A DNA stretch of 64,000 nucleotides, taken from positions 16,416 through 80,415 of the IMG/VR virus record IMGVR_UViG_3300014204_006651. One strand, written 5' to 3'. Below the pieces are notes generated by a model. The model saw only the letters and a program-made list of their open reading frames with translations. It ran no database searches and was not told the origin of the DNA. Made by a program: the position numbers and the translations under genes. Shown piece by piece: positions 2,918 to 54,490 of this stretch; positions within the stretch are counted from its first letter, which is position 1, and each line of letters opens with the position of its first letter. This DNA is from a virus (Duplodnaviria; Heunggongvirae; Uroviricota; Caudoviricetes).

Positions 2918-3748
2918 ATGAGAAATAATTGGAGTGATATTGAAATTAATATACTTAAAATATATTATCCAAATACTAATGATATTAACATTGTTAAATA
3001 TTTTAATGGAAGAACGTTAACATCAATTAAAATTAAAGCAAAAAGATTGAAAATTTATCGTAATGATAAAATTAAAAAATGTAATCGTAGTAATGGTAGC
3101 GTTGGTATTAAAAATGGTATGTATGGAAAATCTTCTAAATTAAAAGGTAAAACATATGATGAATATTATGGTAATGAAAAATCCAAAATAATTAAAGATA
3201 AATTATCTAATAATAATATTGGTAAAATTGGTTCATTTGGTAGTAAAAATGGTATGTATAAAAAAATACCGTATAATAAAGGTATTTCACCAAGTAATGA
3301 AATTAAAAATAAAATAAAAAGTGGTATTAATAATTATTGGAATAATTTAAATAAATTTGAATTAAAAAAAAGAAAAGATAAATTAAGGGAAGATTGGATC
3401 ATAAAAAGAAAGAAATATTCTGAGATTGATACAATACCTGAAATAATAACTGAAAATATTTTATTAAAATTAAAAATTAAATATCAAAAAAAAATAAATA
3501 TTGGATATTATAATTGTGATTTTGTAGTCAATAATATTATTATTGAAGTACAAGGAGATTATTGGCATGGTAATCCAAAATTTTATAATTCATTTGATAA
3601 AATACAAGAAAAAAATATTAATAGAGATAAAAGAAAATTAAAATTCTTACAATCAAAGGGATATTTGACATTATATTTATGGGAAAATGATTTAAAACAT
3701 AATGTTGATTATTGTGAAAACCAACTAATAAAACATTTTTATGAGTAA
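2918..3748 (+). CDS. freestanding homing-endonuclease-like protein with a Vsr/DUF559-type PD-(D/E)XK C-domain and NUMOD-like repeats
   Basis: C-terminal NCDFVVNNIIIEVQGDYWHGN resembles the Vsr core FVDGCFWHG. Two KNGMYGK/KNGMYKK repeats resemble NUMOD3. The track start at 2891 is a TTG; the ATG at 2918 is preferred. Confidence 0.5.
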   Translation: MRNNWSDIEINILKIYYPNTNDINIVKYFNGRTLTSIKIKAKRLKIYRNDKIKKCNRSNGSVGIKNGMYGKSSKLKGKTYDEYYGNEKSKIIKDKLSNNNIGKIGSFGSKNGMYKKIPYNKGISPSNEIKNKIKSGINNYWNNLNKFELKKRKDKLREDWIIKRKKYSEIDTIPEIITENILLKLKIKYQKKINIGYYNCDFVVNNIIIEVQGDYWHGNPKFYNSFDKIQEKNINRDKRKLKFLQSKGYLTLYLWENDLKHNVDYCENQLIKHFYE

Positions 3749-33446: not shown

Positions 33447-34913
33447 ATGACAAAAGAACGAATAGAAAAAGCAGTAGAAATAATAAAATATGCAATCAAA
33501 AATAAAATATCAGTTAAAGAAGCGTCAGTTAAATGTGGATATTCTGACACTTATGTAAAAAATGTTAAAAGAAAAATTTATGAAGCACACAATAATGGTG
33601 TTCTTAAAGAAGGACTTTTAAATATTTTTAATGAAGCATATAAAGAATATAAAAAGGGTAATGAACCTAACACATTTTTAACTAAAAAAAATTATTCTGA
33701 AAATACTAAAACACACAAACCAGAAGACCTTCCTAAAATAATAAAAGGAGAACAAACAACATTTAAAGTTAATGGTAATTCTGCAGATATAGAATGGAAA
33801 TCTGGTGGAAATTATCCTTCTGATCACGTAAGAACACTTGATCAATTATTAAAAATTTGTGAAGTTGATTTAAATCTTTGGCAAGTAAAAGATTATTTGG
33901 TTAATAAATGGGATGTAACAAGTTGGAAAAGTAAATATCCGGAAACACTTCAAAATTTTCAAGTTAAAGCACGTTTAGAAAAAAATATTAAAGTAGCTGA
34001 AGCAATAGACGTAATTGGAATGTTCAGGGAAATGGTTGAAAATTACGAACCCCCAATATATGATTGGATGCCTGAAACACCAAAAAGAACTGAAGAAAAT
34101 AATTTATTAGAAATATCAATATTTGATTTACATATTGGTAAACTTGCTTGGTGTGGGGAAACATACGAAAATTATGACACAAAAATTGCTCGTGAAAGAT
34201 TTTTAATTGCAATTGGAAATTTATTACATCGATCAAGCGGTTTTGAATTTTCAAGAATTTTATTTCCGGTAGGTAATGATTTTTTTAATTCTGATACAAT
34301 AACTAATACCACTACAAATGGTACTCCACAGGATGAAGACCTTCGTTGGCAAAAAACATTTAAAATCGGTTGTAAATTACTTGTTGATGCAATTTATCTA
34401 TTAAAAGAAACGGGTGTTCCTGTTGATGTAGTTGTTATTCCCGGTAATCATGATTTTGAACGTAGTTATTATTTAGGTGAATATTTGGATGCTTGGTTTA
34501 GGAATGATCCTGTTATTAACATAGATAATGGTGCATCACCAAGAAAATTCTATCGTTTTGGTGAAGTATTACTTGGATTTACGCATGGTAGTGAAGAAAA
34601 AGAAGGATCGTTGCCACTAATAATGGCAAGTGATATTATATCTAAACCTATGTGGAGTGAAACAAAATATCATGAATGGCATCTTGGTCACATTCATAGA
34701 AAAAGAAATGTAAACTATAGTGTTACAGATAAAAAAAGAACCTTAAATGAAGATTTAGGGGTTACAGTGAGATATCTTTCAAGTCTTACAGGAACAGAAG
34801 AATGGCATCATAAAAAAGGTTTTATTGGAGCAATAAAAGCAGCAGATGCGTTTGTTTGGAATGATAAACTTGGATTAGTAGCACATTTAAATTCAAATTT
34901 AATTATAGAGTAA
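33447..34913 (+). CDS. calcineurin-like metallophosphoesterase with an N-terminal HTH-like domain
   Basis: Motifs IFDLHIG (DxH), VGNDFFNSD, VIPGNHDF (GNHD/E) and EWHLGHIHR (GHxH). A promoter motif lies at 33364. Confidence 0.55.
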   Translation: MTKERIEKAVEIIKYAIKNKISVKEASVKCGYSDTYVKNVKRKIYEAHNNGVLKEGLLNIFNEAYKEYKKGNEPNTFLTKKNYSENTKTHKPEDLPKIIKGEQTTFKVNGNSADIEWKSGGNYPSDHVRTLDQLLKICEVDLNLWQVKDYLVNKWDVTSWKSKYPETLQNFQVKARLEKNIKVAEAIDVIGMFREMVENYEPPIYDWMPETPKRTEENNLLEISIFDLHIGKLAWCGETYENYDTKIARERFLIAIGNLLHRSSGFEFSRILFPVGNDFFNSDTITNTTTNGTPQDEDLRWQKTFKIGCKLLVDAIYLLKETGVPVDVVVIPGNHDFERSYYLGEYLDAWFRNDPVINIDNGASPRKFYRFGEVLLGFTHGSEEKEGSLPLIMASDIISKPMWSETKYHEWHLGHIHRKRNVNYSVTDKKRTLNEDLGVTVRYLSSLTGTEEWHHKKGFIGAIKAADAFVWNDKLGLVAHLNSNLIIE

Positions 34914-35465: not shown

Positions 35466-35497
35466 AATTGCTTCAATTGAGTTGGAGCAATTTTTGT
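35466..35497 (+). terminator. hairpin terminator
   Basis: TTGCTTCAA-TTGAG-TTGGAGCAA (one G-U pair) followed by TTTTT. It overlaps the track start at 35482, which argues for the internal ATG at 35512. Confidence 0.45.
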
Positions 35498-35511
35498 TTA
35501 CATTGATAATT

Positions 35512-36105
35512 ATGGTTGAAGATATAAATTTAATTAAAGAAGTTTTAAATAAAAATTATAAAGCTGAAAAATTATTTTTTGATAAATATAGAAAAATAAT
35601 TAAAAATTTTTTAAAAAATAAATTTTCAAAAATAGTTATTGATGACATAGATGATTATGTTTCAGATATTTTAATTAAAGTTTATGAAAATCTTAATAAA
35701 TATAATATTAAATTTAATTTTAAAACATGGGTATTAACCATAGCCAAACATCATATGATTGATGTTTGGAGAAATAATGCTATTACTATACCAATTAATA
35801 ATATTATTTTAGATGAAAATGATGATGAAAATAATTATTGTACAACAACAGGATGTTTAACCTTTAATGAAAATAGTAGTTTTAGTACATCATGTATTGT
35901 AGATTTTGAAAACAATAGTTCAATTTCATATATATCTTCACAATTATCCCCTGAAGATTATACTTTATTAACAATGAAGTATATTCAAGGATATGATTAT
36001 AATGAAATTGCTCAAGAATTTAATCTTACAAGTAGTACAATTAGCAATAAAGTAAATTATATTAAAACTAAACTAAAAAAAATTAACTTGGAGAGAGATT
36101 CATAA
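35512..36105 (+). CDS. sigma-70 family (ECF-like) RNA polymerase sigma factor
   Basis: Region 2 is WVLTIAKHHMIDVWRN. Region 4 HTH is YIQGYDYNEIAQEFNLTSSTISNKVNYIKTKLKK. Confidence 0.6.
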   Translation: MVEDINLIKEVLNKNYKAEKLFFDKYRKIIKNFLKNKFSKIVIDDIDDYVSDILIKVYENLNKYNIKFNFKTWVLTIAKHHMIDVWRNNAITIPINNIILDENDDENNYCTTTGCLTFNENSSFSTSCIVDFENNSSISYISSQLSPEDYTLLTMKYIQGYDYNEIAQEFNLTSSTISNKVNYIKTKLKKINLERDS

Positions 36106-36138: not shown

Positions 36139-37497
36139 ATGAAACAAGGTATTTTAGAATATATTAATCTAAAAAAAGAAATTGCTAAAAGTAAAGAAGG
36201 TAGAGATTATATAAAATATATTGTAGTTTCTAATATTAAAAATGAAACGTATAACGTAAAAGATAAACTAAAAGCTCTTGGTTTTAATTGGGATAGAAGA
36301 AATTTTAATTGGTATATATTTGGAAATAAATTAACCCATGATATTCTCGATGGGTTAAAACAAATCAATAATGAGTTGAAAACTGATGGTGGACAAACCG
36401 AAAATATAGATGAATTTATTTATTCATTAGAATCATTTAGAGAACAAATTAATACTTCATCAGCTACTCCAGAAGTTAAAGTTAATTTAACATCACTTCT
36501 TGATCAATATATTGAAGATATAGCAAATGCTACTGATTCAAGAGCAGCAGATGCTGAAATACAAAAATATATTGAATTTTCACATAAATTTCATAATTAT
36601 AGTTTTTTAAATTCAATATTAATTTATATTCAAGATAATAATGCAACAAAAGTTGCTGGTCGAAAAAAATGGGAAAGTTTAGGTAGACAAGTTATTAATT
36701 TAGATAAAAGAATTGTAATTAATTGTTTTAATGAATATTATGTTGATCCTAAAACTGGAAAAAGAATGTCGTATTCATTAGATCAAAAAAAATCAGATAG
36801 AGATTATGTTGCAAAAGTAAAGGGAGGTACTGAACCATTTGATAAGAAAAAAATGGATGATATTGAATCAAGAACTAAAATCATAAAAACTGGTTTTAGT
36901 GATTGTAGTGTTTATGATGTTGCCAATACAACAGGAGAAGCATTACCAGAAGAACCTACATGGAAAGGCACGTCTGATGATAGTGCAGATTCAATTGCAT
37001 TATTTAATATTGCTAAAAAAAGTTTAGAAAATTCGGGTATAAAAGTAACTCAAGACCCATCAAAACAAGGTGAAGGAGGTTTGAGTGGAATTGGTTATAT
37101 AAATATTAGTGCTGGTGAAAAAGGTAGTGGTGCTGCTTCGATAATTTTTCATGAATGGGGACATGAATTACTTCATCATCCTAATAGTAAGTTTCATAGT
37201 AGGTCATTAGAATATTTTGAAAAAAAAGGTGAATTAACATATACACAAATTAAACAAATAAAAGAAGTACAGGCAGAAACAATCTCTGCGGTATTATGTA
37301 AACATTATGCAATACCTACGAATCAACATCCTACATATATGGCTTTATGGCAAGGACAAGGTGGACTTAAAAGTAAAGAATTGATTAAAGAAAATATTGA
37401 AACTATTAGAGAAGTAAGTAATTTTATAATTAAACAAATTGAACTTAATAAAATAGAATTTGATAAGGCTAAAGAACTGGTACAACAACAAAAATAA
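36139..37497 (+). CDS. ArdC-like antirestriction protein (ssDNA-binding N-domain plus HExxH zincin) with an extra N-terminal extension
   Basis: FHNYSFLNSILIYIQDNNATKVAGRKKWESLGRQV matches the ArdC-N/DUF1738 consensus (YS.N ... AT.V.G...W..LGR.V). The C-terminal IIFHEWGHELLHH is an HExxH metalloprotease motif. A promoter motif lies at 36114. Confidence 0.6.
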   Translation: MKQGILEYINLKKEIAKSKEGRDYIKYIVVSNIKNETYNVKDKLKALGFNWDRRNFNWYIFGNKLTHDILDGLKQINNELKTDGGQTENIDEFIYSLESFREQINTSSATPEVKVNLTSLLDQYIEDIANATDSRAADAEIQKYIEFSHKFHNYSFLNSILIYIQDNNATKVAGRKKWESLGRQVINLDKRIVINCFNEYYVDPKTGKRMSYSLDQKKSDRDYVAKVKGGTEPFDKKKMDDIESRTKIIKTGFSDCSVYDVANTTGEALPEEPTWKGTSDDSADSIALFNIAKKSLENSGIKVTQDPSKQGEGGLSGIGYINISAGEKGSGAASIIFHEWGHELLHHPNSKFHSRSLEYFEKKGELTYTQIKQIKEVQAETISAVLCKHYAIPTNQHPTYMALWQGQGGLKSKELIKENIETIREVSNFIIKQIELNKIEFDKAKELVQQQK

Positions 37498-37546: not shown

Positions 37547-37930
37547 TTACATAATTTCAATTGTCTTTTTTATAGTTTTAACATCTTTTGATTTAGGAAT
37601 GTTAATATTTAACACACCATCTTCCATTGTTGCACTAATATTATCAGAATCGGCATTATCAGGTAAAACAAATAATCTTTCATATTTACCAAAATAAGTT
37701 TGTTTACGATTATATTTTAAATCTTTTGTTTCTTTACGTTCTGCTTTAATAATTAATTTATCTTTTTCAACATCAATTGATATGTTTTCTTTTTTTACTC
37801 CGGCAAGCAACATATTAATTAAATATTCATTATCATTTTCGATAACATCATGTACGGGTGTCTTTGTAGTACTATTGCAACATCTTGATGATGGATTATG
37901 AGTAAATAATTTGTCAAAAATATCTGAAAT
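37547..37930 (-). CDS. Hsp20/alpha-crystallin small heat-shock protein (no canonical start codon)
   Basis: The track ORF from ATG 37813 gives only the C-terminal ACD (LLAGVKKENISIDVE ... GVLNINIP). The frame continues upstream with the conserved N-region ISDIFDKLF ... PVHDVIENDNEYLINM up to a TAA at 37934-36, with no ATG, GTG or TTG. The first sense codons are AAT ATT. Confidence 0.55.
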   Translation of the reverse strand: MSDIFDKLFTHNPSSRCCNSTTKTPVHDVIENDNEYLINMLLAGVKKENISIDVEKDKLIIKAERKETKDLKYNRKQTYFGKYERLFVLPDNADSDNISATMEDGVLNINIPKSKDVKTIKKTIEIM

Positions 37931-38225
37931 ATTTTAATTAATCGCATATATCATTATATGTATGATAATTCTAATGTTTATTTAATGCGTAAAAGAAAAA
38001 TTTTCCTTTCAATTTTGGAAAATAAAGATTATTTTTACGATATTAATAAATATAGAGTTCAAAAAAAACATAATATTGAATATAAAAACACATATTATAA
38101 TCAATCATAATTATCTAAAACATTAAGTAATGAGATTGGAATAAAAGAAACAACAATAAGAAGAATGTTGCAAAGAGGATATTCAATATCAAAAATAATT
38201 GAAAAACAAAAAATTATTTAAATTA

Positions 38226-41200
38226 ATGAGTATTAAAAAGATATGTCATTTGGGAGATATACATATTCGCAAAACACCCACACGAAATTCAGAATATGAG
38301 TTTGTTTTTAAAAATTTAATTAAATCACTTACTGAAAAAAAACCAGATAGAATAGTAATTGTTGGTGATTTAGTGCATGATTACCTTGATTTACAAGGTG
38401 AACAATTAATTATGGCAAATAGATTACTTAATGATTTAAGTAAAATTGCCCCTGTAAGAGTTACAAGAGGAAATCATGATTGCCGTAAAAAAAATTTAAA
38501 AAGAGTTGATTCAATAAAAGCAATTGTTGAAACACTAAATAATCCTGAAGTTATTTATTATGATAAAACAGGATTTTATGAAGATAAAAATATTAATTGG
38601 GCAGTTTGGCATCATGGTGAAATAAAAAATAATCCTTGGAAAAATAAAGAAGGTAAACATATTCTGGAAAATCCGAATCATTTTTTAAATATTGATTTAT
38701 TTCACGATCCAATCAATGGTTGTAAAGCAGTGAACGGTTTTGATATGAAAAGTAAATCATATTATAAACTTTCAGATTTTAAGGGAGATTTATCATTTTT
38801 TGGGGATATTCATAGAATGCAATTTTTAGATGAAACACATACAAAAGCATATTGTGGTTCATTAATCGCACAGGATATTGGAGAAGGTGATGATAATTTT
38901 CATGGATATTTATTATGGGACGTAGAAACTAAAACTTCTGAATTAATATCAGTTAAAAATTATCATTCATATAATAATATTAAAATTTCACCATTTACGG
39001 ACTTTGACGATTTGGATTTTGAAATTCCTAACCCAACACGGGAAATGCATGTTAGATTCATTTGGAACACTCTTCCACAAACGAGAACTAAAGAAAATGA
39101 AAGAAAATTAATAAGTTATATAAAATCTAAATATTCTAATTTAATTATTTTACATAAAAATAACTTTATTGAAAGTGAAAATATTGAAATAAATGAAAAC
39201 GTAACACTTCAAAATATTTCAAGTAAAACTGTTCAGCATGAAATTTTTACGGAATTTTTAGAAAAAATAGGAACAGATGCTAATATTATTAATGATGTAA
39301 TTACTTTGGATGAAGAAATCCTCAATGAAATTAATATTGATGAAGATGTTAGTATTGAATGGAATATTATTAAATTCGGTGGTATTAATTTTGCGTCTTA
39401 TGGTCAATTGGATATTGATTGGCGAGATATGGACGGGTTATTTCAAATTACAGGTATTAATACTGCAGGAAAAACAACAATATTAAAATTAATAACATAT
39501 ATTCTTTTTAATAAATCATTAGAAACTGAATCTCGATTAAAATATGGTGATAAACGATTTGTTAATGATAGGAATGGTGCTACATATTGTGAAACATATC
39601 TTGTTTTAGAAGCTAATGGTGAATATTTTGGTATTAAAAGAAGAACTGATATTATAAGAAATAAAGAAGGTGAAATTACTGGTGCACCAACAAAATTAAA
39701 CCATTATATACTTTCTAATCCTGATGAAGAAATGAATGAAAATACTTCATTAGAAAAACTGGATGCAGATAAAAGGATTATTACACAAAATAAACTCGAA
39801 TCAATTATTGGTGCATATGATGATTTTATGCGTATTGTGATGACAACATCTGATACTCTTAATAAAATATTGTCTAATGATATGGCAATTTTTATTGATT
39901 CTTTATTGTCTGATAGTGGTTTAGATATTTTTGATAAAAAATTAGAAGGTTGGAAAATTATAAATAAAAGAATTAATGAAAAATCACGCATTTCTTGTAA
40001 TATTGAAATTAAAGAAATGGAAATTGCTACTTTTACTGAAGAAATTAATTTATTTGAAAGTAATATATATGATATTGAAATAATAAAATTACCAACTATT
40101 CAAAATAAAATTTCTACGGGACGTACATATGTCGAAACATTAACTAAGAAATTATTTAAAATAGACCCCGAAATTTACGATTTAAACGTAGATACGGTTA
40201 GAAAGGATATAAGAGTTCATCAAATGAACATAAATGATTACAATGCACGTAAAATAATATTAAATGATATTATTATTCAACTTAAAGAATCTTATAATGA
40301 AAAACAACTAATTAAACTAATTGAAAAAAAAGAAGCTCACAAAACCATCGAATATAATAAAAAATTTGAAATTAAAACTATTGAGCAAATTATTCGAGAT
40401 GAAGAACATGCTATTGAAATAATTAATGGGGAAATTTTTAGATTAAAACAGGATGGGACAAAATTAAAAACTGAAAGACAAAATTTAAAAAATAGTAAAA
40501 TTTGTAGTCAATGTGGACAAATTATTGATAAAAAAGAACATCAAGATCATATTGCTAATAATATTAAAATAAAAGAAATTGAAATGTTTTCAATTGCTGA
40601 AAAAATTAATGAAAAAGAAAAAATTGATAAACAAAATCATTTAAATAAAATCGAAATTAAAAAGGGTGAAATAATTCCAATTCAAAAAAGTATTGAAAAT
40701 TCGGCACTTGAAATGGAAAATGTATTAAGAGAAATAGGTGAACTTCTGAACGATAAAAATGATGTTGATAAACGTAAAGAATTATCAACAGAATTAAATC
40801 AAATACCAATATTGATTCAAAATGAAGAATTGAAAATTAATATACTTCAACAAAAAATAAATAATTACGAAAATAGTTTAAAGCAAATAGAAGAAAATCA
40901 TAATACTGAAAAAGTTATTACTGCTGCAAAACAAAAATTATTAGTGCTTGAATCTGAAGAATTTAATGAAAAGGAAAATATTTTCATTATGAAAACCAGT
41001 GTTGCTGAAAAACAAAAAAAGATTAAAGAAAATGATCAATTAATTATCGATTTTAAAGCACAAGAATATAGAGATTCAGTTATGAATTTATATAAAATGT
41101 GTGTTCACCGGGATGGCATTCCAAGACAAATGTTAAGTAATTATATTATCCCAAAAATTAATCTAACACTTGAAAATATATTATCAGTTGCACCATTTAA

Positions 41201-41555
41201 AGTATGGCTTGATCAAGATGATTTACGACCTAAATTAGTCTATAATAATAGACCAACCTCAATTATTGATTGTATTGGTGGAAGTGGTAAAGAAAGAACA
41301 TTTTCCAGTGTGGTGTTAAAATTTGCATTAAATCAAATTAATGTGAAAGCCAAGCCAACAATATTTTTACTTGATGAGGTGATGGGTAAATTGGATTTGG
41401 AAGGAAGTGTTGAGGAATTTATTGAAATATTACAACTAATTAAATTAAATATGAAAAAGGTATTAATCATTGAACAAGTTCATAATATAGAACCAGACTA
41501 TTTAATTACTGCACAATTGGATGAAAATGGTATATCATCAATTACTATTGAATAA
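38226..41555 (+). CDS. single-chain Mre11(SbcD)-Rad50(SbcC) fusion nuclease/ATPase
   Basis: N-terminal metallophosphatase motifs HLGDIHI, VGDLVHD and TRGNHDC. Then the Walker A P-loop GINTAGKTTILKL, a long coiled coil containing a CSQCGQ zinc hook (CxxC), a signature-like GGSGKER and Walker B/D-loop IFLLDEVMGKLD. The ATG at 38226 is preferred over the TTG at 38199. Confidence 0.75.
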   Translation: MSIKKICHLGDIHIRKTPTRNSEYEFVFKNLIKSLTEKKPDRIVIVGDLVHDYLDLQGEQLIMANRLLNDLSKIAPVRVTRGNHDCRKKNLKRVDSIKAIVETLNNPEVIYYDKTGFYEDKNINWAVWHHGEIKNNPWKNKEGKHILENPNHFLNIDLFHDPINGCKAVNGFDMKSKSYYKLSDFKGDLSFFGDIHRMQFLDETHTKAYCGSLIAQDIGEGDDNFHGYLLWDVETKTSELISVKNYHSYNNIKISPFTDFDDLDFEIPNPTREMHVRFIWNTLPQTRTKENERKLISYIKSKYSNLIILHKNNFIESENIEINENVTLQNISSKTVQHEIFTEFLEKIGTDANIINDVITLDEEILNEINIDEDVSIEWNIIKFGGINFASYGQLDIDWRDMDGLFQITGINTAGKTTILKLITYILFNKSLETESRLKYGDKRFVNDRNGATYCETYLVLEANGEYFGIKRRTDIIRNKEGEITGAPTKLNHYILSNPDEEMNENTSLEKLDADKRIITQNKLESIIGAYDDFMRIVMTTSDTLNKILSNDMAIFIDSLLSDSGLDIFDKKLEGWKIINKRINEKSRISCNIEIKEMEIATFTEEINLFESNIYDIEIIKLPTIQNKISTGRTYVETLTKKLFKIDPEIYDLNVDTVRKDIRVHQMNINDYNARKIILNDIIIQLKESYNEKQLIKLIEKKEAHKTIEYNKKFEIKTIEQIIRDEEHAIEIINGEIFRLKQDGTKLKTERQNLKNSKICSQCGQIIDKKEHQDHIANNIKIKEIEMFSIAEKINEKEKIDKQNHLNKIEIKKGEIIPIQKSIENSALEMENVLREIGELLNDKNDVDKRKELSTELNQIPILIQNEELKINILQQKINNYENSLKQIEENHNTEKVITAAKQKLLVLESEEFNEKENIFIMKTSVAEKQKKIKENDQLIIDFKAQEYRDSVMNLYKMCVHRDGIPRQMLSNYIIPKINLTLENILSVAPFKVWLDQDDLRPKLVYNNRPTSIIDCIGGSGKERTFSSVVLKFALNQINVKAKPTIFLLDEVMGKLDLEGSVEEFIEILQLIKLNMKKVLIIEQVHNIEPDYLITAQLDENGISSITIE

Positions 41556-43802: not shown

Positions 43803-44414
43803 ATGATAATTGATACTACAACATATGAAGTAAAAGGGGTTAATCTACATAAAACACATTGCATTAAGACACAAATTATAATAGCAATGAGTTTAAGAAA
43901 AAATAGTTATCACATAATTAGATTAAAAAACAAAGAATTTGGTAATTCAAAAAAATGGAATACTTACACTATTTCCAGAGACGGAACAATATATCAACAT
44001 TATGATCCAAAATTCCATACCGATTTTCTTGGTATTAAAGAAGCTGATAAACAATCAATATCAATAGTACTGGAAAATATGGGTTGTTTATTTCGTACTT
44101 CAACTAATAAATATATTAATTGGTTGAATGAAGAATGTGATAAAAAAAATGTTGTAGCGTTTGATTATATGGGATATAATTTTTGGGAACAATATTCAAA
44201 TGAACAAATAGAAAGTACTGTTCAATTATGTAAAAAATTATGTGAAGATTTTAATATTCCTAATACAAGTATGGAATTTTTTCCATATCATAAAGATACA
44301 ATTAAATTTAAAGGTATTGTTTTCAGAAGTAATCATATTGAAGATAGTAGTGACATAAATCCGCTCTTTAATATTGATAAATTTAATGAAATGTTACATA
44401 ATGAATTTGTTTAA
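43803..44414 (+). CDS. amidase_2/PGRP-like paralog with degenerate active site
   Basis: It aligns along its length with amidase 49700 (RDGTIYQHY vs WDGKIYQCF; YSNEQIESTV vs YTDAQIESVR). The HHT zinc ligands are replaced by AMS, and the Cys by Asp. Confidence 0.4.
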   Translation: MIIDTTTYEVKGVNLHKTHCIKTQIIIAMSLRKNSYHIIRLKNKEFGNSKKWNTYTISRDGTIYQHYDPKFHTDFLGIKEADKQSISIVLENMGCLFRTSTNKYINWLNEECDKKNVVAFDYMGYNFWEQYSNEQIESTVQLCKKLCEDFNIPNTSMEFFPYHKDTIKFKGIVFRSNHIEDSSDINPLFNIDKFNEMLHNEFV

Positions 44415-45953: not shown

Positions 45954-46160
45954 ATGGATAATAGTGATATTAAGAAAATAGTCAAAGATGAAATTACGAA
46001 TTTTGTTAGAAATTCTTTGGATATTGAATTAAAAAAAATTCTTAGTAATCTAAATAGTAAATCAAGACATGAATTAGCAGATGCAATGAAAAGAGCAATG
46101 GAAAGTGTTGTTAAAACACTGTGGATCAAGAGAGATTTTTGGAAGACAGATATAAAATAA
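45954..46160 (+). CDS. small hypothetical protein
   Basis: 68 aa. The promoter motif at 45929 supports the + strand ORF over the overlapping - strand ORF. Confidence 0.4.
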   Translation: MDNSDIKKIVKDEITNFVRNSLDIELKKILSNLNSKSRHELADAMKRAMESVVKTLWIKRDFWKTDIK

Positions 46161-49100
46161 TGAACGAAGATATTAAATTTAAGTCAACACTTAAAGAACC
46201 AGTAAGTGATCAGTCAAAGAAATTTGAAAAAGATTTTAAAAAAACTATGACACAATATAACCCAACAACGAAATTGAATGAAACTGATACTTTATTAAGT
46301 GAAGTAGAGCAATCATTAAAGAAAAAGATTTTTAGTTTGGGTAAAATGGAATCATTAGTTTTTGCTGATCCTAAATTAACTGCGGTTTATAATCAAATGG
46401 CTGAAAATGGTGAAGAAAAATATGGATATCATTATAATGAAACTATTCAAAATATGATATTTAATGATTATGTATTAAATAGTCCGAAATATTTACAAAA
46501 ATATAAAATGGCTATACCGAAAGAAAAGAAAAGAAGAGATAAAAGCGGTATTAATCAATTAAAAAAAGCAGGAGAAATAACTATGGCAAAAACAAATCCA
46601 ACTCCTAAACCAATTGTTACTGAAAATGATGAATTACCTACTAAAGTAATGTTTTTGGTTAACGATAGAGATCAAAAAAATGCAGATGTTTTTGCATATT
46701 TTCCAGAAGAAAATTATGATAATGCTGGTAAATATAAAACTGCTTATTCACATATTGGTCAACACTCTTCTGCAAGTCCAGAATATGCTGCAGAAAGTAG
46801 ACCAGCATCACCAGAAGAATACGCTGATCTTAAAGCTGAACTTGAAAGTATTGGTTATAATCTTGATGTAGTTAATGGTATTGAAGAAACTACAGGTGCT
46901 GGAAGTGCTGGTGCATTTGCTCCTGCAATGGGAATACAAAAAAGATCATTTGCAGAAGAAGAAATTGAAGAATCCACATCAGCAAGTAGTGCTGGTGGTG
47001 CTGCTGGATATGTTGGTTATGCAGGTCCTGCTGCTTGGGGTAGTGGTGATTTATTAAAAAAAGGTGAAACAAGTCCAACATTAAAAAAACCAATATGGAA
47101 AGGTGGAACAGTTATACAAGAAAGTAATTATTTAATTGATCCATCTGGATTTGAAAAATATATTCATTTATTAAATGAAGTTGATATATCCTATCAAACA
47201 AAATTGGAAAAAAAATCCCCAAATAGACAAGAAAAAGATAATACTATTATTAATAAAACTTCTGCATTTACAAGTGATGTGGTAAAAAATTGGAACGATG
47301 ATGATACTAATCTTGAAATGAATCAATTAAAAACTGGTAATCCGGATAAACCAAATTTTAATACAATGGAAGAAGAAAAGAATCTTAATGAAAAATCTAA
47401 ATCGAAAACACAACAACGTTTTATGGGTATGGTTCATGCAGTACAAAAAGGTAAATTAAGTCCTGATAAAGTTGGTAATAGTGTTGAAAAAGCTGCTGTA
47501 AATATGAGTGATAAAGATGCTGAAGATTTTGCAAGCACTAAACATAAAGGATTACCTGAAAAAATTGATGAAAATTTAGATGCAAAATATTCTCCTGATG
47601 AAAATTATAAATTTGTTGTTGAATCAAAATATATTATTGGTTTTCAAGGAAGGGAAGATATTTTATATTTTAAAACTGAAAGCGTTGCATTAAAATTTGT
47701 TAATGAAAAACCTAAAACACGAAAATATTTAGGTATTTATAATATTAAAGATGATACATTAACTATGATACAAAATAATGGTAATCCAGACAAATCAAAT
47801 TTAAGAACAATGGATGAAATTTTAAGTGTACATGATACTGTAGAATATATATCAGATAGAAATGGTGAAAATCCTTTTGAATTACAGGGTTCAAAATGGC
47901 AATTTGTAAATGCTAAATATCCCGATGGTAAGATAGATATTGGAGTATACAAGTTTGGTCAGGATTTGGTGTTTGATTATACAAGATGGCGAGAAGAAAT
48001 GGGATTAGATAAAAATAACAATATTAAAGAAGATACACAAACTATGATACAAAATAATGGAACTTCGATGTCAAACAAAGCACAACCAACTGGTGAACAA
48101 CCAAGTGGTATGGGTATGGGCATGCAAACAAGTGGTGGATTACAAGAATCCGATCAAATATCAAATCCTGTTAAATGGGTTCAAGCACAAAAAGATGCTG
48201 AAGGAATGAATGAACACTACAAAAAATTATTAAAAGAAATAAATAGTGAGTTGGAAGCATTTTCAATTCATCAAAATAAATTAATGAAAATGAGTGAAGA
48301 TAGAAAACCATCGTCATTGGTACTTAAAGATCGACTTGGTGATGATAATAAGAAAAATTTTAAATCAGATTTACAACAAAGCGGTACTAAAGAAGTAATT
48401 GATGTTGAAAAAGAATTACAATATAATGACCAACAAACCGATGTAGGTGATAATCCACAAAAATTGGGTCAAGATATTGAAAATAAACTTTTATTAAACA
48501 CAAAAGGTGATGCATTATTAAATGTAGGTGATTCTGATAATGATAAGGGTGATGAAATACCAAAACGTAATTTCACTACTGAAGAACAACATGAAGTTGA
48601 TATGATGCGTCAGGGTCAACAAGATTTGATTTTTGATAATAAACCAAGTAAAAGGTTTGAAGATCGTATGAAAGCTGATATGGGTGATGCAATGTATAAA
48701 ATCAGACAAGAAAAAATGAAATACAAAGCAAAAGCACCAATGTATAATAAAGAAGAACAACCTATAGCTGATACTGCAGTTAATAAAGTACAATTTGATA
48801 AAGAAAAATCTGGCTGGAATGAAAGAGAAGGTTTAGCTGAAACTATGATCACTGGTAGATTTATTGATTTATTGGGTAAAAAATATGTGAAGGATTTTAG
48901 GTTAAATGAAGCTAAAGAACTAAAAACTTCAACTGGAACTGCTAATCAAACAGGATTATTTGAATTAGATTTTACTGGATTTGGTAATAAATATAAAGGT
49001 AAAACAGAAAATAAAAAAGTTCTTATTAATGAAGGTATTGAAGCAGTATTATCCGAAAATAAATTTTATACTGATGGTATTAATGTTTTTGTTTTAAAGA

Positions 49101-49246
49101 ATCCTGTTCAAAAATTAAACGAAAATGAACATAAATTTGAAAAACAACCAATAAATGAACAAGTAAATAAAATGAAACACTTACTTGGTTATAAACCAAA
49201 TGAGTTTGTGAATACAACTAATGTAAAGAAAAATCGTGGATTTTAA
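46160..49246 (+). CDS. large acidic hypothetical protein with internal repeats
   Basis: About 1028 aa, counted from the internal ATG that overlaps the upstream stop (TAATG). It has an internal repeat DDTLTMIQNNGNP / EDTQTMIQNNGTS and a low-complexity GAGSAGAFAPAMG ... SSAGGAAGYVGYAGPAAWGSG segment. Confidence 0.5.
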   Translation: MNEDIKFKSTLKEPVSDQSKKFEKDFKKTMTQYNPTTKLNETDTLLSEVEQSLKKKIFSLGKMESLVFADPKLTAVYNQMAENGEEKYGYHYNETIQNMIFNDYVLNSPKYLQKYKMAIPKEKKRRDKSGINQLKKAGEITMAKTNPTPKPIVTENDELPTKVMFLVNDRDQKNADVFAYFPEENYDNAGKYKTAYSHIGQHSSASPEYAAESRPASPEEYADLKAELESIGYNLDVVNGIEETTGAGSAGAFAPAMGIQKRSFAEEEIEESTSASSAGGAAGYVGYAGPAAWGSGDLLKKGETSPTLKKPIWKGGTVIQESNYLIDPSGFEKYIHLLNEVDISYQTKLEKKSPNRQEKDNTIINKTSAFTSDVVKNWNDDDTNLEMNQLKTGNPDKPNFNTMEEEKNLNEKSKSKTQQRFMGMVHAVQKGKLSPDKVGNSVEKAAVNMSDKDAEDFASTKHKGLPEKIDENLDAKYSPDENYKFVVESKYIIGFQGREDILYFKTESVALKFVNEKPKTRKYLGIYNIKDDTLTMIQNNGNPDKSNLRTMDEILSVHDTVEYISDRNGENPFELQGSKWQFVNAKYPDGKIDIGVYKFGQDLVFDYTRWREEMGLDKNNNIKEDTQTMIQNNGTSMSNKAQPTGEQPSGMGMGMQTSGGLQESDQISNPVKWVQAQKDAEGMNEHYKKLLKEINSELEAFSIHQNKLMKMSEDRKPSSLVLKDRLGDDNKKNFKSDLQQSGTKEVIDVEKELQYNDQQTDVGDNPQKLGQDIENKLLLNTKGDALLNVGDSDNDKGDEIPKRNFTTEEQHEVDMMRQGQQDLIFDNKPSKRFEDRMKADMGDAMYKIRQEKMKYKAKAPMYNKEEQPIADTAVNKVQFDKEKSGWNEREGLAETMITGRFIDLLGKKYVKDFRLNEAKELKTSTGTANQTGLFELDFTGFGNKYKGKTENKKVLINEGIEAVLSENKFYTDGINVFVLKNPVQKLNENEHKFEKQPINEQVNKMKHLLGYKPNEFVNTTNVKKNRGF

Positions 49247-49630: not shown

Positions 49631-49661
49631 AAAAGTATCAATTATTTGATACTTTTTTTTT
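49631..49661 (+). terminator. rho-independent terminator
   Basis: AAAAGTATCAA-TTAT-TTGATACTTTTTTTTT. Confidence 0.5.
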
Positions 49662-49699
49662 ATCTATTAGTCTGTATTTATAGAAAAAAGTTAAAAATT

Positions 49700-50467
49700 A
49701 TGTTATTCAGTATAAATAAATTTTCGTTGGGTTTGTTGAAAGATACTCTTTCATATGCATCCATCCAAAAAGATAATGACGCATTTGAATTAATTCAAAA
49801 CATTAAATTAAATATTAATGATATTATTCAGGTTGATTTTCCTGATAATCAATATTATAAAGAACAAACAAATAAAAACCAAATAGTTTTACATCATACT
49901 GTTTCTGGACAAGGTGTTGATGGGGATATTGCATATTGGAGAAGTACGGTAGAAAGAATCGGAACAGCAATTATTGTTGGTTGGGATGGTAAAATATATC
50001 AATGTTTCAGTACTAAATATTGGGCACATCATTTAGGAACACATGCCGTAAATAATGTTGCTTTAAATAAAGCGAGTATTGGAATTGAAATTGATGCTTG
50101 GGGTGGTTTAATAAAAAAAGATAATCTATGGTATCCGGCAAAATGGGATGTAATTAAAAAGAAAAATATTCCCAACACAAAAGTTAAACCAATTCAGAAT
50201 GTTCAGGAATATCCTAAAGGATTTATGGGATATTATGGTTTTGAAAAATATACTGATGCACAAATTGAATCGGTAAGAAAATTATTAGTGTTTTGGAATG
50301 AAAAATATAATATTCCTCTTGATTATCATCCTGAAATGTGGAATATTTCTATAAAAGCATTGGGAGGTGTTCCGGGTATTTGGACACATGTTAGTTACAG
50401 GGGAAATGGAAAATCTGATTGTCATCCCGATGAAGGATTGATCAAAATGTTAAAATCGTTAAAATAA
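49700..50467 (+). CDS. N-acetylmuramoyl-L-alanine amidase (Amidase_2/PGRP-type) endolysin
   Basis: IVLHHTVSGQG, later GIEIDAWGG, and HVSYRGNGKSDCHPDEG with His/Cys ligands. The promoter motif GTATTTATAGAAAAA lies at 49674. The track start at 49646 sits in the terminator, so the internal ATG is preferred. Confidence 0.6.
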   Translation: MLFSINKFSLGLLKDTLSYASIQKDNDAFELIQNIKLNINDIIQVDFPDNQYYKEQTNKNQIVLHHTVSGQGVDGDIAYWRSTVERIGTAIIVGWDGKIYQCFSTKYWAHHLGTHAVNNVALNKASIGIEIDAWGGLIKKDNLWYPAKWDVIKKKNIPNTKVKPIQNVQEYPKGFMGYYGFEKYTDAQIESVRKLLVFWNEKYNIPLDYHPEMWNISIKALGGVPGIWTHVSYRGNGKSDCHPDEGLIKMLKSLK

Positions 50468-53304: not shown

Positions 53305-53592
53305 TTATTGCCAAATTAATTGTTCAGTAAATGTACCTTCAATACTTTCAGAATCATAATATTTATCGAAATTTTCTTCAGTCATATATGCTCTTTTCAT
53401 TTTATTTTCACCGTATAGTAGATAATCGAACATATCAATCATAGTATTAAAGAAAATATATGTTCCTTCCCGATAAATATAGACAAAACTATCTTTCCAA
53501 TCACTAATGGGAGAATAATTAAGCAAGACACCTAATGTCCTGCTTTTATCTGAATATTCTTCTTCGTGAGCAGTTTTAATTTTTGTGATCAT
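53305..53592 (-). CDS. hypothetical protein
   Basis: 95-aa ORF that overlaps the end of the M23 gene by 17 nt. Confidence 0.4.
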   Translation of the reverse strand: MITKIKTAHEEEYSDKSRTLGVLLNYSPISDWKDSFVYIYREGTYIFFNTMIDMFDYLLYGENKMKRAYMTEENFDKYYDSESIEGTFTEQLIWQ

Positions 53593-54490
53593 TTTTTGCT
53601 AATAATATTGATTCTGTGGTTAAATAAGTATAAAAATAACTTAATGGGTCTTTTAATTCATTATTTTGATGTATTTCATAATGAAGATGATCACCAGTTG
53701 CTAAACCCGTATTTCCAACAGTTCCAATATAATCACCCTTTTGAACAATTTGTCCTTTTTTTATGATTATGGATGAAAGATGAGCATAAAGTGTTTCAAA
53801 ACCACTTGAATTTTTTATAACAATTTTGTTTCCGTAACCATATTTTGAATATGTTATTTTTTCAACTATACCTTTCATTGATGAATATACTTTAGTTCCT
53901 TTACTTGCATTAATATCAACACCATCATGAAATAGTTGTGTATGATAAATTGGATGCATTCTCCATCCAAATCCTGATGATATTTGAATTAAATCAATTG
54001 TTTTAATTGGTGAAATAGTAGGATAATTATTTAAAAGTTCTTTATTATTTTTTATTTCTTCTGATGTTGATAACATTTTTTCTAATTGATTAGCCATTAT
54101 ACAAGATAATGTTAACATTCTTTTATCTAAATAATTAAAAATTGAATCAACTGAAATTGTATCTAAATTTGTATATAAATTAAACGATTTAATATTAAGA
54201 CAATTAGTATCAATATCAATTCCTAAAGTTTGATAATAAATATAGTTATCATAATTATTGATTGAAATTAAATTGTTTTCAATATCAATTAATTTTTTTT
54301 CGAGTTCAACATATTTTTTTCTTAACATAAAATTTTCATACAATAAAATGCCATTTTTATTGTTGATAATTATATCATCATTGGTACTGGCACTAATTGG
54401 AGTTGAACTAAAAAAAATCATCACATTGACTGCAAGTAAAATTGAAAAGACAATTATTAACTTACGTAAAATTAAAATAGATTTTCTCAT
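53576..54490 (-). CDS. secreted/membrane-anchored M23 family metallopeptidase
   Basis: HDGVDINASKG (HxxxD), GNTGLATGDHLHYEIH (HxH), and an N-terminal signal anchor. Confidence 0.8.
   Translation of the reverse strand: MRKSILILRKLIIVFSILLAVNVMIFFSSTPISASTNDDIIINNKNGILLYENFMLRKKYVELEKKLIDIENNLISINNYDNYIYYQTLGIDIDTNCLNIKSFNLYTNLDTISVDSIFNYLDKRMLTLSCIMANQLEKMLSTSEEIKNNKELLNNYPTISPIKTIDLIQISSGFGWRMHPIYHTQLFHDGVDINASKGTKVYSSMKGIVEKITYSKYGYGNKIVIKNSSGFETLYAHLSSIIIKKGQIVQKGDYIGTVGNTGLATGDHLHYEIHQNNELKDPLSYFYTYLTTESILLAKNDHKN

Follow-up and report, generated by a model that had tools for sequence, protein, structure and literature searches.

The window analysed here is a 64,000-nucleotide stretch of a tailed-phage-like genome of ~327 kb, and on its plus strand we found one long reading frame that joins an Mre11-type (SbcD) nuclease to a Rad50-type (SbcC) ATPase. 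The open reading frame listing gives the gene as 38199..41555 (+), a 1118-residue product with a TTG start, or as 1109 residues with an ATG at 38226; because the homologues begin at the same M-x-x-K-I-x-H-L-x-D-I-H, the ATG is the likely start and the upstream TTG at 38199 an unlikely one. At the 25% G+C of this genome, an open reading frame of 3.3 kb lies far beyond chance. The features of the gene are as follows.

38226..41555, plus strand: single-chain Mre11-Rad50, whole gene (1109 residues plus stop, one ORF)
38226..38855, plus strand: Mre11/SbcD phosphoesterase core, aa 1-210 (Pfam Metallophos, invariant motif residues, Foldseek Mre11/SbcD matches)
38256-38264, plus strand: phosphoesterase motif I, DIH, aa 11-13
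38364-38381, plus strand: phosphoesterase motif II, GDLVHD, aa 47-52
38469-38480, plus strand: phosphoesterase motif III, GNHD, aa 82-85
38697-38711, plus strand: phosphoesterase motif IV, H160
38802-38813, plus strand: phosphoesterase motif V, GDIH, aa 193-196
38856..39161, plus strand: capping-like beta domain, aa ~211-312 (AF2 strands 227-312; 7dog_B alignment)
39225..39323, plus strand: two helices, aa 334-347 and 352-366, where the Mre11 C-terminal helix-loop-helix sits (AF2 secondary structure)
39324..39353, plus strand: Mre11-to-Rad50 linker, aa 367-376, NEINIDEDVS (non-regular, between helix 352-366 and strand 377-389)
39354..39920, plus strand: Rad50 ATPase N-lobe, aa 377-565 (Pfam AAA_23, E 1.4e-8)
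39453-39479, plus strand: Walker A, GINTAGKTT, aa 410-418
39840-39860 region, plus strand: Q-loop position, S542
39921..40493, plus strand: coiled-coil N-arm, aa 566-756 (AF2 helices 568-584, 593-641, 655-685 and 692-756)
40494..40532, plus strand: zinc-hook apex, aa 757-769, SKICSQCGQIIDK (sole non-helical break between the ~190-residue arms)
40503-40514, plus strand: CSQC, aa 760-763
40533..41105, plus strand: coiled-coil C-arm, aa 770-960 (AF2 helices 770-883 and 885-960)
41106..41552, plus strand: Rad50 ATPase C-lobe, aa 961-1109 (invariant motif residues; Rad50/SbcC head matches)
41280-41300, plus strand: signature GSGKE, aa 1019-1023
41361-41396, plus strand: Walker B/D-loop, IFLLDEVMGKLD, aa 1046-1057
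41475-41477, plus strand: H-loop position, Q1084 (codon CAA)

A Pfam search with the 1109-residue protein returned Metallophos at residues 5-197 (E 8.8e-11) and AAA_23 at residues 388-612, and among the PHROG profiles it matched phrog_35725 at E 1e-40, a 1376-position profile built on long fused proteins, together with the SbcC-like phrog_77. The AF2 model used here, from a 64-sequence alignment (pLDDT 86.9, pTM 0.61), superseded an earlier one from 30 close sequences in which the C-lobe was poor (pLDDT 70). The uninterrupted ORF and the Pfam, PDB profile and fold matches agree with the original prediction that Mre11 and Rad50 are encoded in a single 1109-residue polypeptide, and the motifs it quoted (DIH, GDLVHD, GNHD, GINTAGKTT, CSQC and IFLLDEVMGKLD) are all present where it placed them.

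Mre11/SbcD nuclease motifs I-III (DxH, GDxx(D/H) and GNH(D/E)) are complete, and D11, G47, D48, G82, N83, H84, H160 and H196 are invariant across 64 sequences reaching down to 21% identity. In P. furiosus Mre11 the C-terminal catalytic histidines (motifs IV-VI) are H173, H206 and H208. With equivalence to the P. furiosus residues taken from motif order and fold alignment, the residue before H196 is Asp (GDIH) rather than His, and the giant-virus protein R555 deviates likewise, its Asp242 replacing the first His of motif V (PMC3175470). The N-terminal ~370 residues match solved Mre11/SbcD structures by profile and by fold (TM-score to target up to 0.69). Supporting a nuclease plus capping fold, there were PDB profile matches to 2q8u, 7dog and 3qg5_C, and Foldseek aligned the protein with the SbcD nuclease and capping domains of 7dog_B over 345 columns (TM-score to target 0.69, rmsd 5.2) and gave TM-scores to target of 0.68 for 4tug and 0.66 for E. 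coli SbcD (4m0v), with further Mre11/SbcD matches to 3tho and 6s6v. Against full-length Mre11 from T. maritima (3tho_B) and M. jannaschii (3av0_A), the alignments covered ~405 columns each. [quoted passage not shown]

The C-terminal ~735 residues matched Rad50/SbcC heads by Foldseek (5dny, 3av0_B and 7yzp_C; TM-score to target 0.58-0.71), full Rad50 7zr1 was matched at E 8e-19, and relatives of the protein gave SMC_N and SbcC_Walker_B matches. The head is a split ABC head, with Walker A in the N-terminal lobe and the signature, Walker B (LLDE, 1048-1051) and D-loop (GKLD, 1054-1057) in the C-terminal lobe. N412, G415, K416, G1021, D1050 and E1051 are invariant in the 64 sequences, and signature residues S1020 and E1023 are conserved in at least 90% of them. 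A column check of the same alignment showed the canonical Q-loop Gln and H-loop His to be absent from the 1109-residue protein: the Q-loop column, with Gln in only 22 of 64 sequences, has Ser here (S542), fixed across the 30 close relatives, and the H-loop column, with His in 59 of 64, has Gln here (Q1084) and is mixed in the close subclade (15 His, 10 Gln, 4 Pro and 1 Leu of 30). Because S542 and Q1084 replace the canonical residues, ATP hydrolysis may be slow or otherwise catalysed; the Q-loop Gln and H-loop His are accessory catalytic residues, and their loss would bear on canonical kinetics and not on the fold. These substitutions also speak for an alternative that we consider unlikely, namely that this is a diverged, hydrolysis-attenuated Mre11-Rad50 (MR) that binds ATP and serves above all as a DNA clamp or tether, its nuclease gating depending little on ATP turnover. 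However, the Walker A Lys, the Walker B Asp-Glu (catalytic base) and the signature motif are invariant, H1086, two residues downstream of position 1084, or other residues might substitute, and the assignment of a single loop residue at 20% identity depends on the alignment.

Between the two lobes of the head runs a long antiparallel coiled coil of ~190+190 residues, as seen both in the AF2 model and in the covariation of N-arm and C-arm lengths (r=0.98, 64 sequences). It bears at its apex the intact CSQC(GQ) zinc hook that had been proposed for it: all 64 sequences have both C760 and C763, 51 of them with the CxxC spacing, the CxxC region matched the P. furiosus Rad50 zinc-hook crystal structure 1l8d in a PDB profile search (E 5.8e-4), and PF04423 matches were found in homologues. 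Judged from these cysteines, the CxxC hook probably binds Zn.

Our search for relatives found 719 homologues, the best 120 of which are all ~1106-1127 residues long, and their alignments to the 1109-residue protein run from residue 1-3 through to the end. A wider search returned 2735 representative matches (50%-identity clusters), 574 of them at E<=1e-30; among the best 150 of the 2735 representatives, 101 are at least 1000 residues long and most align end to end. Independent assemblies from JGI, ENA, NCBI and Logan carry the same uninterrupted ORF, and the fused ORF is present in the sequenced isolates Tenacibaculum phage PTm1 (1318 residues), Chryseobacterium phage MA9V-1 (1326 residues) and Microcystis phage Mel-JY01 (1066 residues), with Tenacibaculum phage PTm5 as a further isolate. 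Full-length Foldseek matches extended to proteins of Tupanvirus, Harvfovirus, Catovirus, Yasminevirus and a Tetraselmis virus (E 1e-38 to 1e-54, 14-21% identity), and the strength of the match to these Mimiviridae proteins resembles that to the PTm1 protein, as judged by Foldseek. The fused architecture is the rule in a very large family of phages and giant viruses. Essential active sites are typical intein insertion points, and some homologues carry inteins inserted between GNHD and C.

The position of the gene is syntenic in relatives of 316-362 kb, and near-identical DNA was not found in known phages. We rejected a cellular or plasmid origin: a search of 185,579 species genomes yielded only two MAG contigs, one of them 362 kb and syntenic with the window, and a tblastn search for plasmid matches returned none. 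When the window was scanned with family HMMs for the nuclease, cap/HLH, N-lobe and C-lobe, no second Rad50 or Mre11 rose above noise. Since these 64 kb are part of a ~327-kb genome, a canonical Mre11/Rad50 pair on separate genes may lie outside them. Also rejected, as a Rad50-partnered Mre11, was a 488-residue phosphoesterase upstream (33447-34913), which belongs to phrog_704, a stand-alone phage family with 1,941 phage records. An ArdC-like anti-restriction-type gene lies in the neighbourhood and, unlike the fused gene, is variable among the syntenic relatives.

It is quite improbable that the protein belongs instead to a conflict system, as an SMC-like ATPase plus nuclease with which the phage would compete with other viruses, destroy host DNA or counter defences, by analogy with the ATPase-nuclease systems of Lamassu, Wadjet or OLD type. 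PADLOC gave weak matches to Lamassu LmuB (E 9e-6, 23 bits) and mad3 (19 bits), JetC and LmuB were among the SMC-like Foldseek matches, the ArdC-like gene is nearby, and cellular organisms bearing the fusion usually also keep a canonical pair, suggesting a different role for the fused copy there (PMC3175470). However, the PADLOC matches reflect generic SMC/Rad50 similarity and score far below those to Rad50 and Mre11. Lamassu LmuB, Wadjet JetC and RloC share with the 1109-residue protein an ABC/SMC-type head and coiled coil and a weak likeness in sequence and fold, but the effectors of these systems (Cap4 or other nucleases, Toprim JetD and an anticodon nuclease) are unrelated to Mre11, whereas the nuclease joined to the ATPase here is of the Mre11/SbcD kind specifically and includes the capping and HLH regions. 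Zinc hooks are a mark of Rad50, although RloC has a Rad50-like one too (cited in PMC7824862). Moreover, the fused gene is at a fixed site in the syntenic phages, the ArdC-like gene being the variable one, and the 64-kb window is without any other Rad50-like gene. Membership of a Lamassu- or Wadjet-type defence system was rejected, as the PADLOC matches were weak and generic, an NCBIfam scan gave nothing above cut-offs and neither LmuA nor JetABD-like neighbours were present among the flanking ORFs scanned.

The linker of ~10 residues agrees with the 9-12 residues predicted from the T. maritima complex (PMC3175470), and the spacing from G349 to G385 across the junction is 34-41 residues in 64/64 family members. 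Within the subclade the major-residue frequency of the junction region is 0.60-0.80, the linker itself (aa 367-376) being least conserved (0.60), with pLDDT ~76. A poorly conserved linker would suit the production of two working proteins from the fused ORF, through linker proteolysis or internal initiation of Rad50, with the fusion as a co-expression device only, and some relatives (L009) tolerate a split elsewhere in the gene; we nevertheless find this very improbable, as no conserved Met or start context was found at the junction among the homologues compared, the anchor spacing argues for a structural tether, and the break in L009 falls inside the nuclease domain, leaving the C-terminal part of Mre11 still fused to Rad50. 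The reading that an assembly or sequencing error near nt 39250-39350, in the form of a frameshift or an overlooked stop, turned adjacent sbcD-like and sbcC-like genes into one is effectively refuted: SbcD precedes SbcC in the bacterial sbcDC operon, which is also the domain order here, and one lost stop would yield such an ORF (PMC5105663), but comparison with related phages found the same unbroken ORF in hundreds of independent assemblies and three isolate genomes, with the junction sequence conserved in the subclade, the length fixed family-wide and 0 internal stops in the 1109-residue frame.

In T4 (gp47/gp46) and in bacteria (SbcD/SbcC) the same domains, motifs and fold reside on separate chains, held together without a covalent bond where the Mre11 HLH meets the Rad50 coiled coil at its base, whereas the tether here is covalent; the 1109-residue protein also departs from them at its Q-loop (S542) and H-loop (Q1084) positions. 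A shared role, end resection for recombination-dependent replication, is presumed (PMC3175470; PMC7824862), and SbcCD is near-universal among jumbo phages (PMC7824862). The fusion had been called unusual, which is true relative to T4 and cells but not more widely, given its prevalence in the large phage and giant-virus family and the earlier work of Yoshida, Claverie and Ogata (Virol J 2011; PMC3175470), who described natural fusions of Mre11 with Rad50 and treated the structural plausibility of this class. The marks of the fusion class (one ORF, Mre11 then Rad50, a spacer of capping/HLH length and a short linker) are all found in our protein. Like the R555 type, it has Mre11 N-terminal and Rad50 C-terminal, a capping/HLH-length region, a short linker, a long coiled coil and a motif II of the form GDxxH; R555 differs in being a 1351-residue protein of a giant virus. 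The zinc hook was outside the analysis of PMC3175470.

Also close are the jumbo-phage 'metallo-phosphoesterase' members of PHROG 35725 (PTm1 gp075, the PTm5/pT24 homologues, MA9V-1 ORF70 and a Sphingomonas phage PAU protein) and WWT39521 of Mel-JY01, which have the same fused architecture as single annotated ORFs of 1066-1326 residues. At 20-28% identity to our protein they keep GD, GNH, GDIH, the Walker A GK, the hook cysteines, the signature and the Walker B DE; PTm1 and MA9V-1 have Gln for the second His of motif I and, unlike our protein, keep the Q-loop Gln. The literature examined on PHROG 35725-type phages does not discuss the fusion, the annotations being phosphoesterase, DNA repair exonuclease or AAA protein. 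Besides the 2011 giant-virus paper (PMC3175470), the literature searched held nothing specific on a phage Mre11-Rad50 fusion or a jumbo-phage SbcCD fusion, and no biochemical study of any family member was found in it.

With its architecture, motif integrity, deep conservation and fold established, the gene is very probably a natural R555-type single-chain Mre11-Rad50 (SbcD-SbcC) with a full nuclease, a ~10-residue linker, a full ATPase and a CxxC hook. Its oligomeric state, activities and biological role we infer as follows. Two chains would form a homodimer equal to the canonical M2R2, in which the Mre11 domains dimerise, ATP held where the Walker A of either chain faces its partner's signature motif would close the heads on DNA, and two CxxC hooks would jointly hold one Zn2+; the Mn2+-dependent nuclease would then open or trim DNA ends. 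By analogy with T4 gp46/gp47, this would produce the recombinogenic 3' ends that the phage requires for recombination-dependent replication and break repair. The protein would most likely be a homodimeric, M2R2-equivalent end-resection machine for these processes. The fusion would give 1:1 stoichiometry plus co-inheritance. There is also a small chance that the single-chain MR is the only Mre11-Rad50 of its clade and has an altered ATPase cycle (the Q-loop Ser and the H-loop drift among His, Gln, Pro and Leu), with the tether replacing part of the Mre11-Rad50 rearrangement driven by ATP hydrolysis. If true, this would be an MR machine simplified by nature, its nuclease gating mechanistically unlike that of canonical SbcCD/MR, and an attractive one-gene structural model.

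For the R555-type single-chain protein the fusion concept was already known and is unchanged; strict conservation of the hook cysteines, the H-loop Gln, the Q-loop Ser and the intein-bearing and split variants are minor additions. As a DNA-end-processing machine Mre11-Rad50 is universal, and debate about its conformational cycle continues. In a natural single chain both the stoichiometry and the tether between Mre11 and Rad50 are fixed, and such a protein could be a convenient one-gene model. Present labels such as 'metallo-phosphoesterase', 'AAA domain protein' and 'hypothetical' under-describe the fused genes. The fused form is no rarity, being standard across a jumbo/mega-phage family of hundreds of 50%-identity clusters and structurally co-linear with the Mimiviridae R555 proteins. 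The R555 group is abundant in viromes, and the 2011 authors inferred a phage source for many of its virome homologues (PMC3175470), an inference that this wide phage family bears out.

Within the window, which has a G+C content of 25% throughout in a composition scan, a single open reading frame spans 38199..41555 (+), and translation of the whole ORF found no internal stops. Because homologs open with the pattern M-x-x-K-I-x-H-L-x-D-I-H that is also present at the ATG at 38226, this ATG is the probable start codon and gives a protein of 1109 residues (128 kDa). The original prediction of one ORF with Mre11 motifs followed by a Rad50 ATPase was borne out by Pfam matches to Metallophos (residues 5-197, E 8.8e-11) and AAA_23 (residues 388-612, E 1.4e-8). 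Every motif it had quoted was present in the translation, including a zinc hook that lies at the apex between two long helical arms, and we located three further elements (marked as additional):

Residues 11-13, nuclease motif DIH
Residues 47-52, nuclease motif GDLVHD
Residues 82-85, nuclease motif GNHD
H160, nuclease motif (additional)
Residues 193-196, nuclease motif GDIH (additional)
Residues 410-418, Walker A GINTAGKTT
Residues 760-763, zinc-hook CSQC
Residues 1019-1023, ABC signature GSGKE (additional)
Residues 1046-1057, Walker B/D-loop stretch IFLLDEVMGKLD

In an alignment of 64 full-length family members, with identity down to 21%, the invariant residues were D11, G47, D48, G82, N83, H84, H160 and H196 of the nuclease, N412, G415 and K416 of Walker A, C760 and C763 of the hook, G1021 of the signature, and D1050 and E1051 of Walker B; H13, D85, G193-D194, S1020 and E1023 were conserved in at least 90%. 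The structure model built from this alignment (mean pLDDT 86.9, pTM 0.61, no segment below 50) had the following order of parts:

Residues 1-210, mixed alpha/beta phosphoesterase core
Up to residue ~312, beta-rich capping-like domain
Residues 334-347 and 352-366, helix pair
After helix 352-366, irregular linker of ~10 residues
Residues 377-410, first beta-strands of the Rad50 N-lobe
Residues 568-756 and 770-960, coiled-coil helices, the sole break being the apex at 757-769 with CSQC
After helix 770-960, Rad50 C-lobe

Foldseek searches of the PDB matched the ATPase part to Rad50 of C. thermophilum MRN (7zr1 C/D, E 8e-19) and to Rad50/SbcC heads (5dny_B/D, 3av0_B, 3auy_A and 7yzp_C; TM-score to target 0.58-0.71), and matched the N-terminus to Mre11/SbcD (7dog_B, 4tug and 4m0v; TM-score to target 0.69, 0.68 and 0.66, respectively), with full-length 3tho_B, 3av0_A and 6s6v aligned across ~405 columns. 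An earlier, weaker model found the same Mre11/SbcD and Rad50 families, the family sequence profile alone matched Mre11/SbcD chains, and profile positions 717-806 matched the P. furiosus Rad50 zinc-hook structure 1l8d (E 5.8e-4). The junction segment, anchored by G349 and G385, was 34-41 residues long in all 64 aligned sequences, and the coiled-coil arms, which range from ~175 to ~270 residues, covaried in length (r=0.98, n=64), as is expected only with antiparallel pairing that places the two cysteines at the apex. Both features support the structural reading. Hook cysteines were spaced CxxC in 51 of the 64 sequences, including the window protein and all close relatives, and a distant subgroup had C-x4-10-C; the apex CPVxYDxxHxxC, with cysteines 10 residues apart and a conserved histidine, was seen in homologs P0198, P0200, P0207, P0210, P0219, P0231, P0254 and P0261 and could represent another kind of metal-binding hook.

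The window protein shows no change in Walker A, Walker B or the signature. The Q-loop column holds Ser (residue 542, 39849-39851) in this protein and all 30 close relatives, with Gln in only 22/64 of the alignment, and the H-loop column, His in 59/64, holds Gln (codon CAA, residue 1084, 41475-41477); within the subclade at 65-73% identity to the window protein (n=30) the H-loop residue is H in 15, Q in 10, P in 4 and L in 1. Going by the alignment, ATP hydrolysis may be slower or differently catalyzed, and the Ser and Gln would fit a hydrolysis-attenuated Mre11-Rad50 (MR) variant, a possible but rather unlikely reading. Motif V of the nuclease is GDIH, not GHxH, the same substitution as reported for R555, the Mimivirus fusion. 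In the fused proteins of phages PTm1 (L001:3992-7948) and MA9V-1 (L002:4001-7981), Gln replaces the second His of motif I (DIQ/DVQ), and GD, GNH and GDIH are retained. Homologs P0047, P0082, P0092, P0214 and P0270 (~1370-1440 residues at full length) carry an intein (PF14890) immediately after motif III, between GNHD and C; its +1 Cys corresponds to C86 of the window protein (equivalent site 38478-38483).

Since every component of the canonical complex of two Mre11 and two Rad50 subunits sits in one chain, the simplest functional unit would be a homodimer. Yoshida et al. (PMC3175470) put the gap between the Mre11 C-terminus and the Rad50 N-terminus of the T. maritima complex at ~28 Å, which a linker of 9-12 residues can bridge, and the ~10-residue, fixed-length linker fits this estimate. 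If it works like T4 gp46/gp47 and SbcCD, the enzyme would hold on to DNA ends ATP-dependently and tether them through Zn-hook dimerization, and its Mn2+-dependent nuclease would resect or open them, a step that would supply both recombination-dependent replication and the repair of breaks (PMC3175470). Family HMMs detected no second Rad50- or Mre11-like ORF within the 64-kb window. An SMC-nuclease of defense or counter-defense is very unlikely: the LmuB/mad3 matches that would favor it are weak and generic, as are the SMC-like fold matches, whereas the nuclease partner is of a specifically Mre11-like type and synteny around the gene is stable. That a fused chain is separated post-translationally into two proteins seems very improbable, as a linker of constrained length favors a tether and a naturally split locus, L009, breaks inside the nuclease with the rest of Mre11 still joined to Rad50. 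In this variant (L009:3046-6775, Logan SRR20069387; also P0143 and P0160), a 221-residue ORF stopping just past motif V (GDIHKFQEL-stop) and a 96-residue ORF precede a 924-residue ORF with the remaining nuclease, cap, helix-loop-helix and Rad50; the gene can be interrupted inside its nuclease part with Mre11 and Rad50 still joined at the junction.

For the single-chain MR enzyme, comparison with related phages, one of the proposed checks, found uninterrupted fused ORFs. A tblastn search of GenBank phages identified single long ORFs of the same layout in Tenacibaculum phage PTm1 (and PTm5; 1318 residues), Chryseobacterium phage MA9V-1 (1326), Microcystis phage Mel-JY01 (1066) and metagenomic phage genomes of 735-kb and 484-kb, and a domain scan of these gave Metallophos plus AAA_23, SMC_N, Rad50_zn_hook or SbcC_Walker_B. 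Among PHROGs, phrog_35725 (profile length 1376), which matches residues 2-806 (E 1e-40), is a family of long proteins of the same fused kind, and phrog_77 'SbcC-like' matches residues 281-1105. A collection of 5.8 billion proteins held 719 homologs, the best 120 clusters being 64-72% identical and all about 1106-1127 residues, with Metallophos and AAA_23/SMC_N (PF04423 in some), on contigs of up to 362 kb from JGI, ENA, NCBI and Logan. When 1.84 billion cluster representatives were scanned exhaustively, 2735 matched, 574 of them with E<=1e-30; 101 of the top 150 representatives had at least 1000 residues, most of the 101 aligning from residue ~3 to ~1105. Gene order was kept in 316-362-kb relatives: stand-alone phosphoesterase, orf176, sigma factor, HSP20 (opposite strand), fused gene, 383-residue membrane protein, dCMP deaminase, amidase. 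An assembly artefact is therefore rejected, a missed stop or frameshift being excluded for practical purposes by the same ORF in independent assemblies and GenBank phages together with the conserved synteny. A tblastn search of plasmids found no relatives. A search of 185,579 species genomes yielded just two MAG contigs, and one of them (362-kb) is most likely mis-binned phage because it is syntenic with the window.

Other genes in the window were as follows:

3741-5897 (+), 718-residue protein, N-terminus tRNA nucleotidyltransferase (CCA-adding; phrog_2244, E 2e-56), C-terminus weakly RNA-ligase-like
33447-34913 (+), stand-alone calcineurin-like phosphoesterase, 488 residues, 3.3 kb upstream of the fused gene
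35482-36105 (+), phage ECF-like sigma factor (Sigma70_r2 + r4), kept in relatives
36139-37497 (+), 452-residue protein with a weak match to the ArdC N-terminal (ssDNA-binding anti-restriction) domain and a HEWGHE metalloprotease-like motif
37547-37813 (-), HSP20-like ORF, 88 residues vs 139 (PF00011) in relatives
46121-49246 (+), 1041-residue ORF (1305 in relatives), sole recognizable part a DUF3008 segment (residues 427-481)
43803-44414 and 49646-50467, Amidase_2 genes close to the 1041-residue ORF
53576-54490 (-), M23 peptidase, also close to it

The 488-residue phosphoesterase has motifs DLH, GND, GNHD and GHIH and matches phrog_704 'DNA repair exonuclease' (E 2e-66), its N-terminal ~200 residues being without a match; 1,941 phage records, for the most part of 40-50-kb phages, contain relatives, and related megaphage contigs keep it in synteny with the fused gene. 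The ArdC-like gene is a variable insertion beside the conserved fused gene, since it is missing at the equivalent position in relatives L005, L007 and L008, whose genes at that place differ and include one for a radical SAM protein. The HSP20-like ORF may be truncated or have a miscalled start. No tRNA genes were found in the window. The coding strand changes from + to - near 53.3 kb, where GC skew and AT skew flip sign.

Nearly all jumbo phages encode SbcC/SbcD (PMC7824862), and a targeted literature search for fused SbcC/SbcD in jumbo phages initially gave only these separate genes; the fused gene in MA9V-1, PTm1 and PAU is annotated 'metallo-phosphoesterase', without comment. The original prediction was correct on the one-chain structure, but the fusion it called unusual is of a kind known since 2011 and belongs to a very large family. 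Yoshida, Claverie and Ogata (PMC3175470) described R555 (1351 residues) and twelve further fusions, including that of Bacillus phage 0305phi8-36, reported R555-like sequences, probably phage-derived, as very abundant in viral-fraction metagenomes, and argued that the structure of the MR complex allows for such a fusion; the zinc hook is not discussed there. Against viral predicted structures, Foldseek gave full-length matches (1250-1400 aligned columns, E 1e-38 to 1e-55 at 14-21% identity) to PTm1/pT24 and Mimiviridae (Tupanvirus, Harvfovirus, Catovirus, Yasminevirus, Tetraselmis virus and others), whereas similarity to T4-type Rad50 proteins was confined to the ATPase part. The additions made here are incremental and concern how large and how deep the phage clade is, the strict conservation of both hook cysteines, the covarying arm lengths, the junction of fixed length, the relaxed Q-loop and H-loop of the window protein's subclade, and the intein-bearing and split variants. 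Single-chain MR enzymes make up a very large family in phages and giant viruses, to which the window gene belongs.
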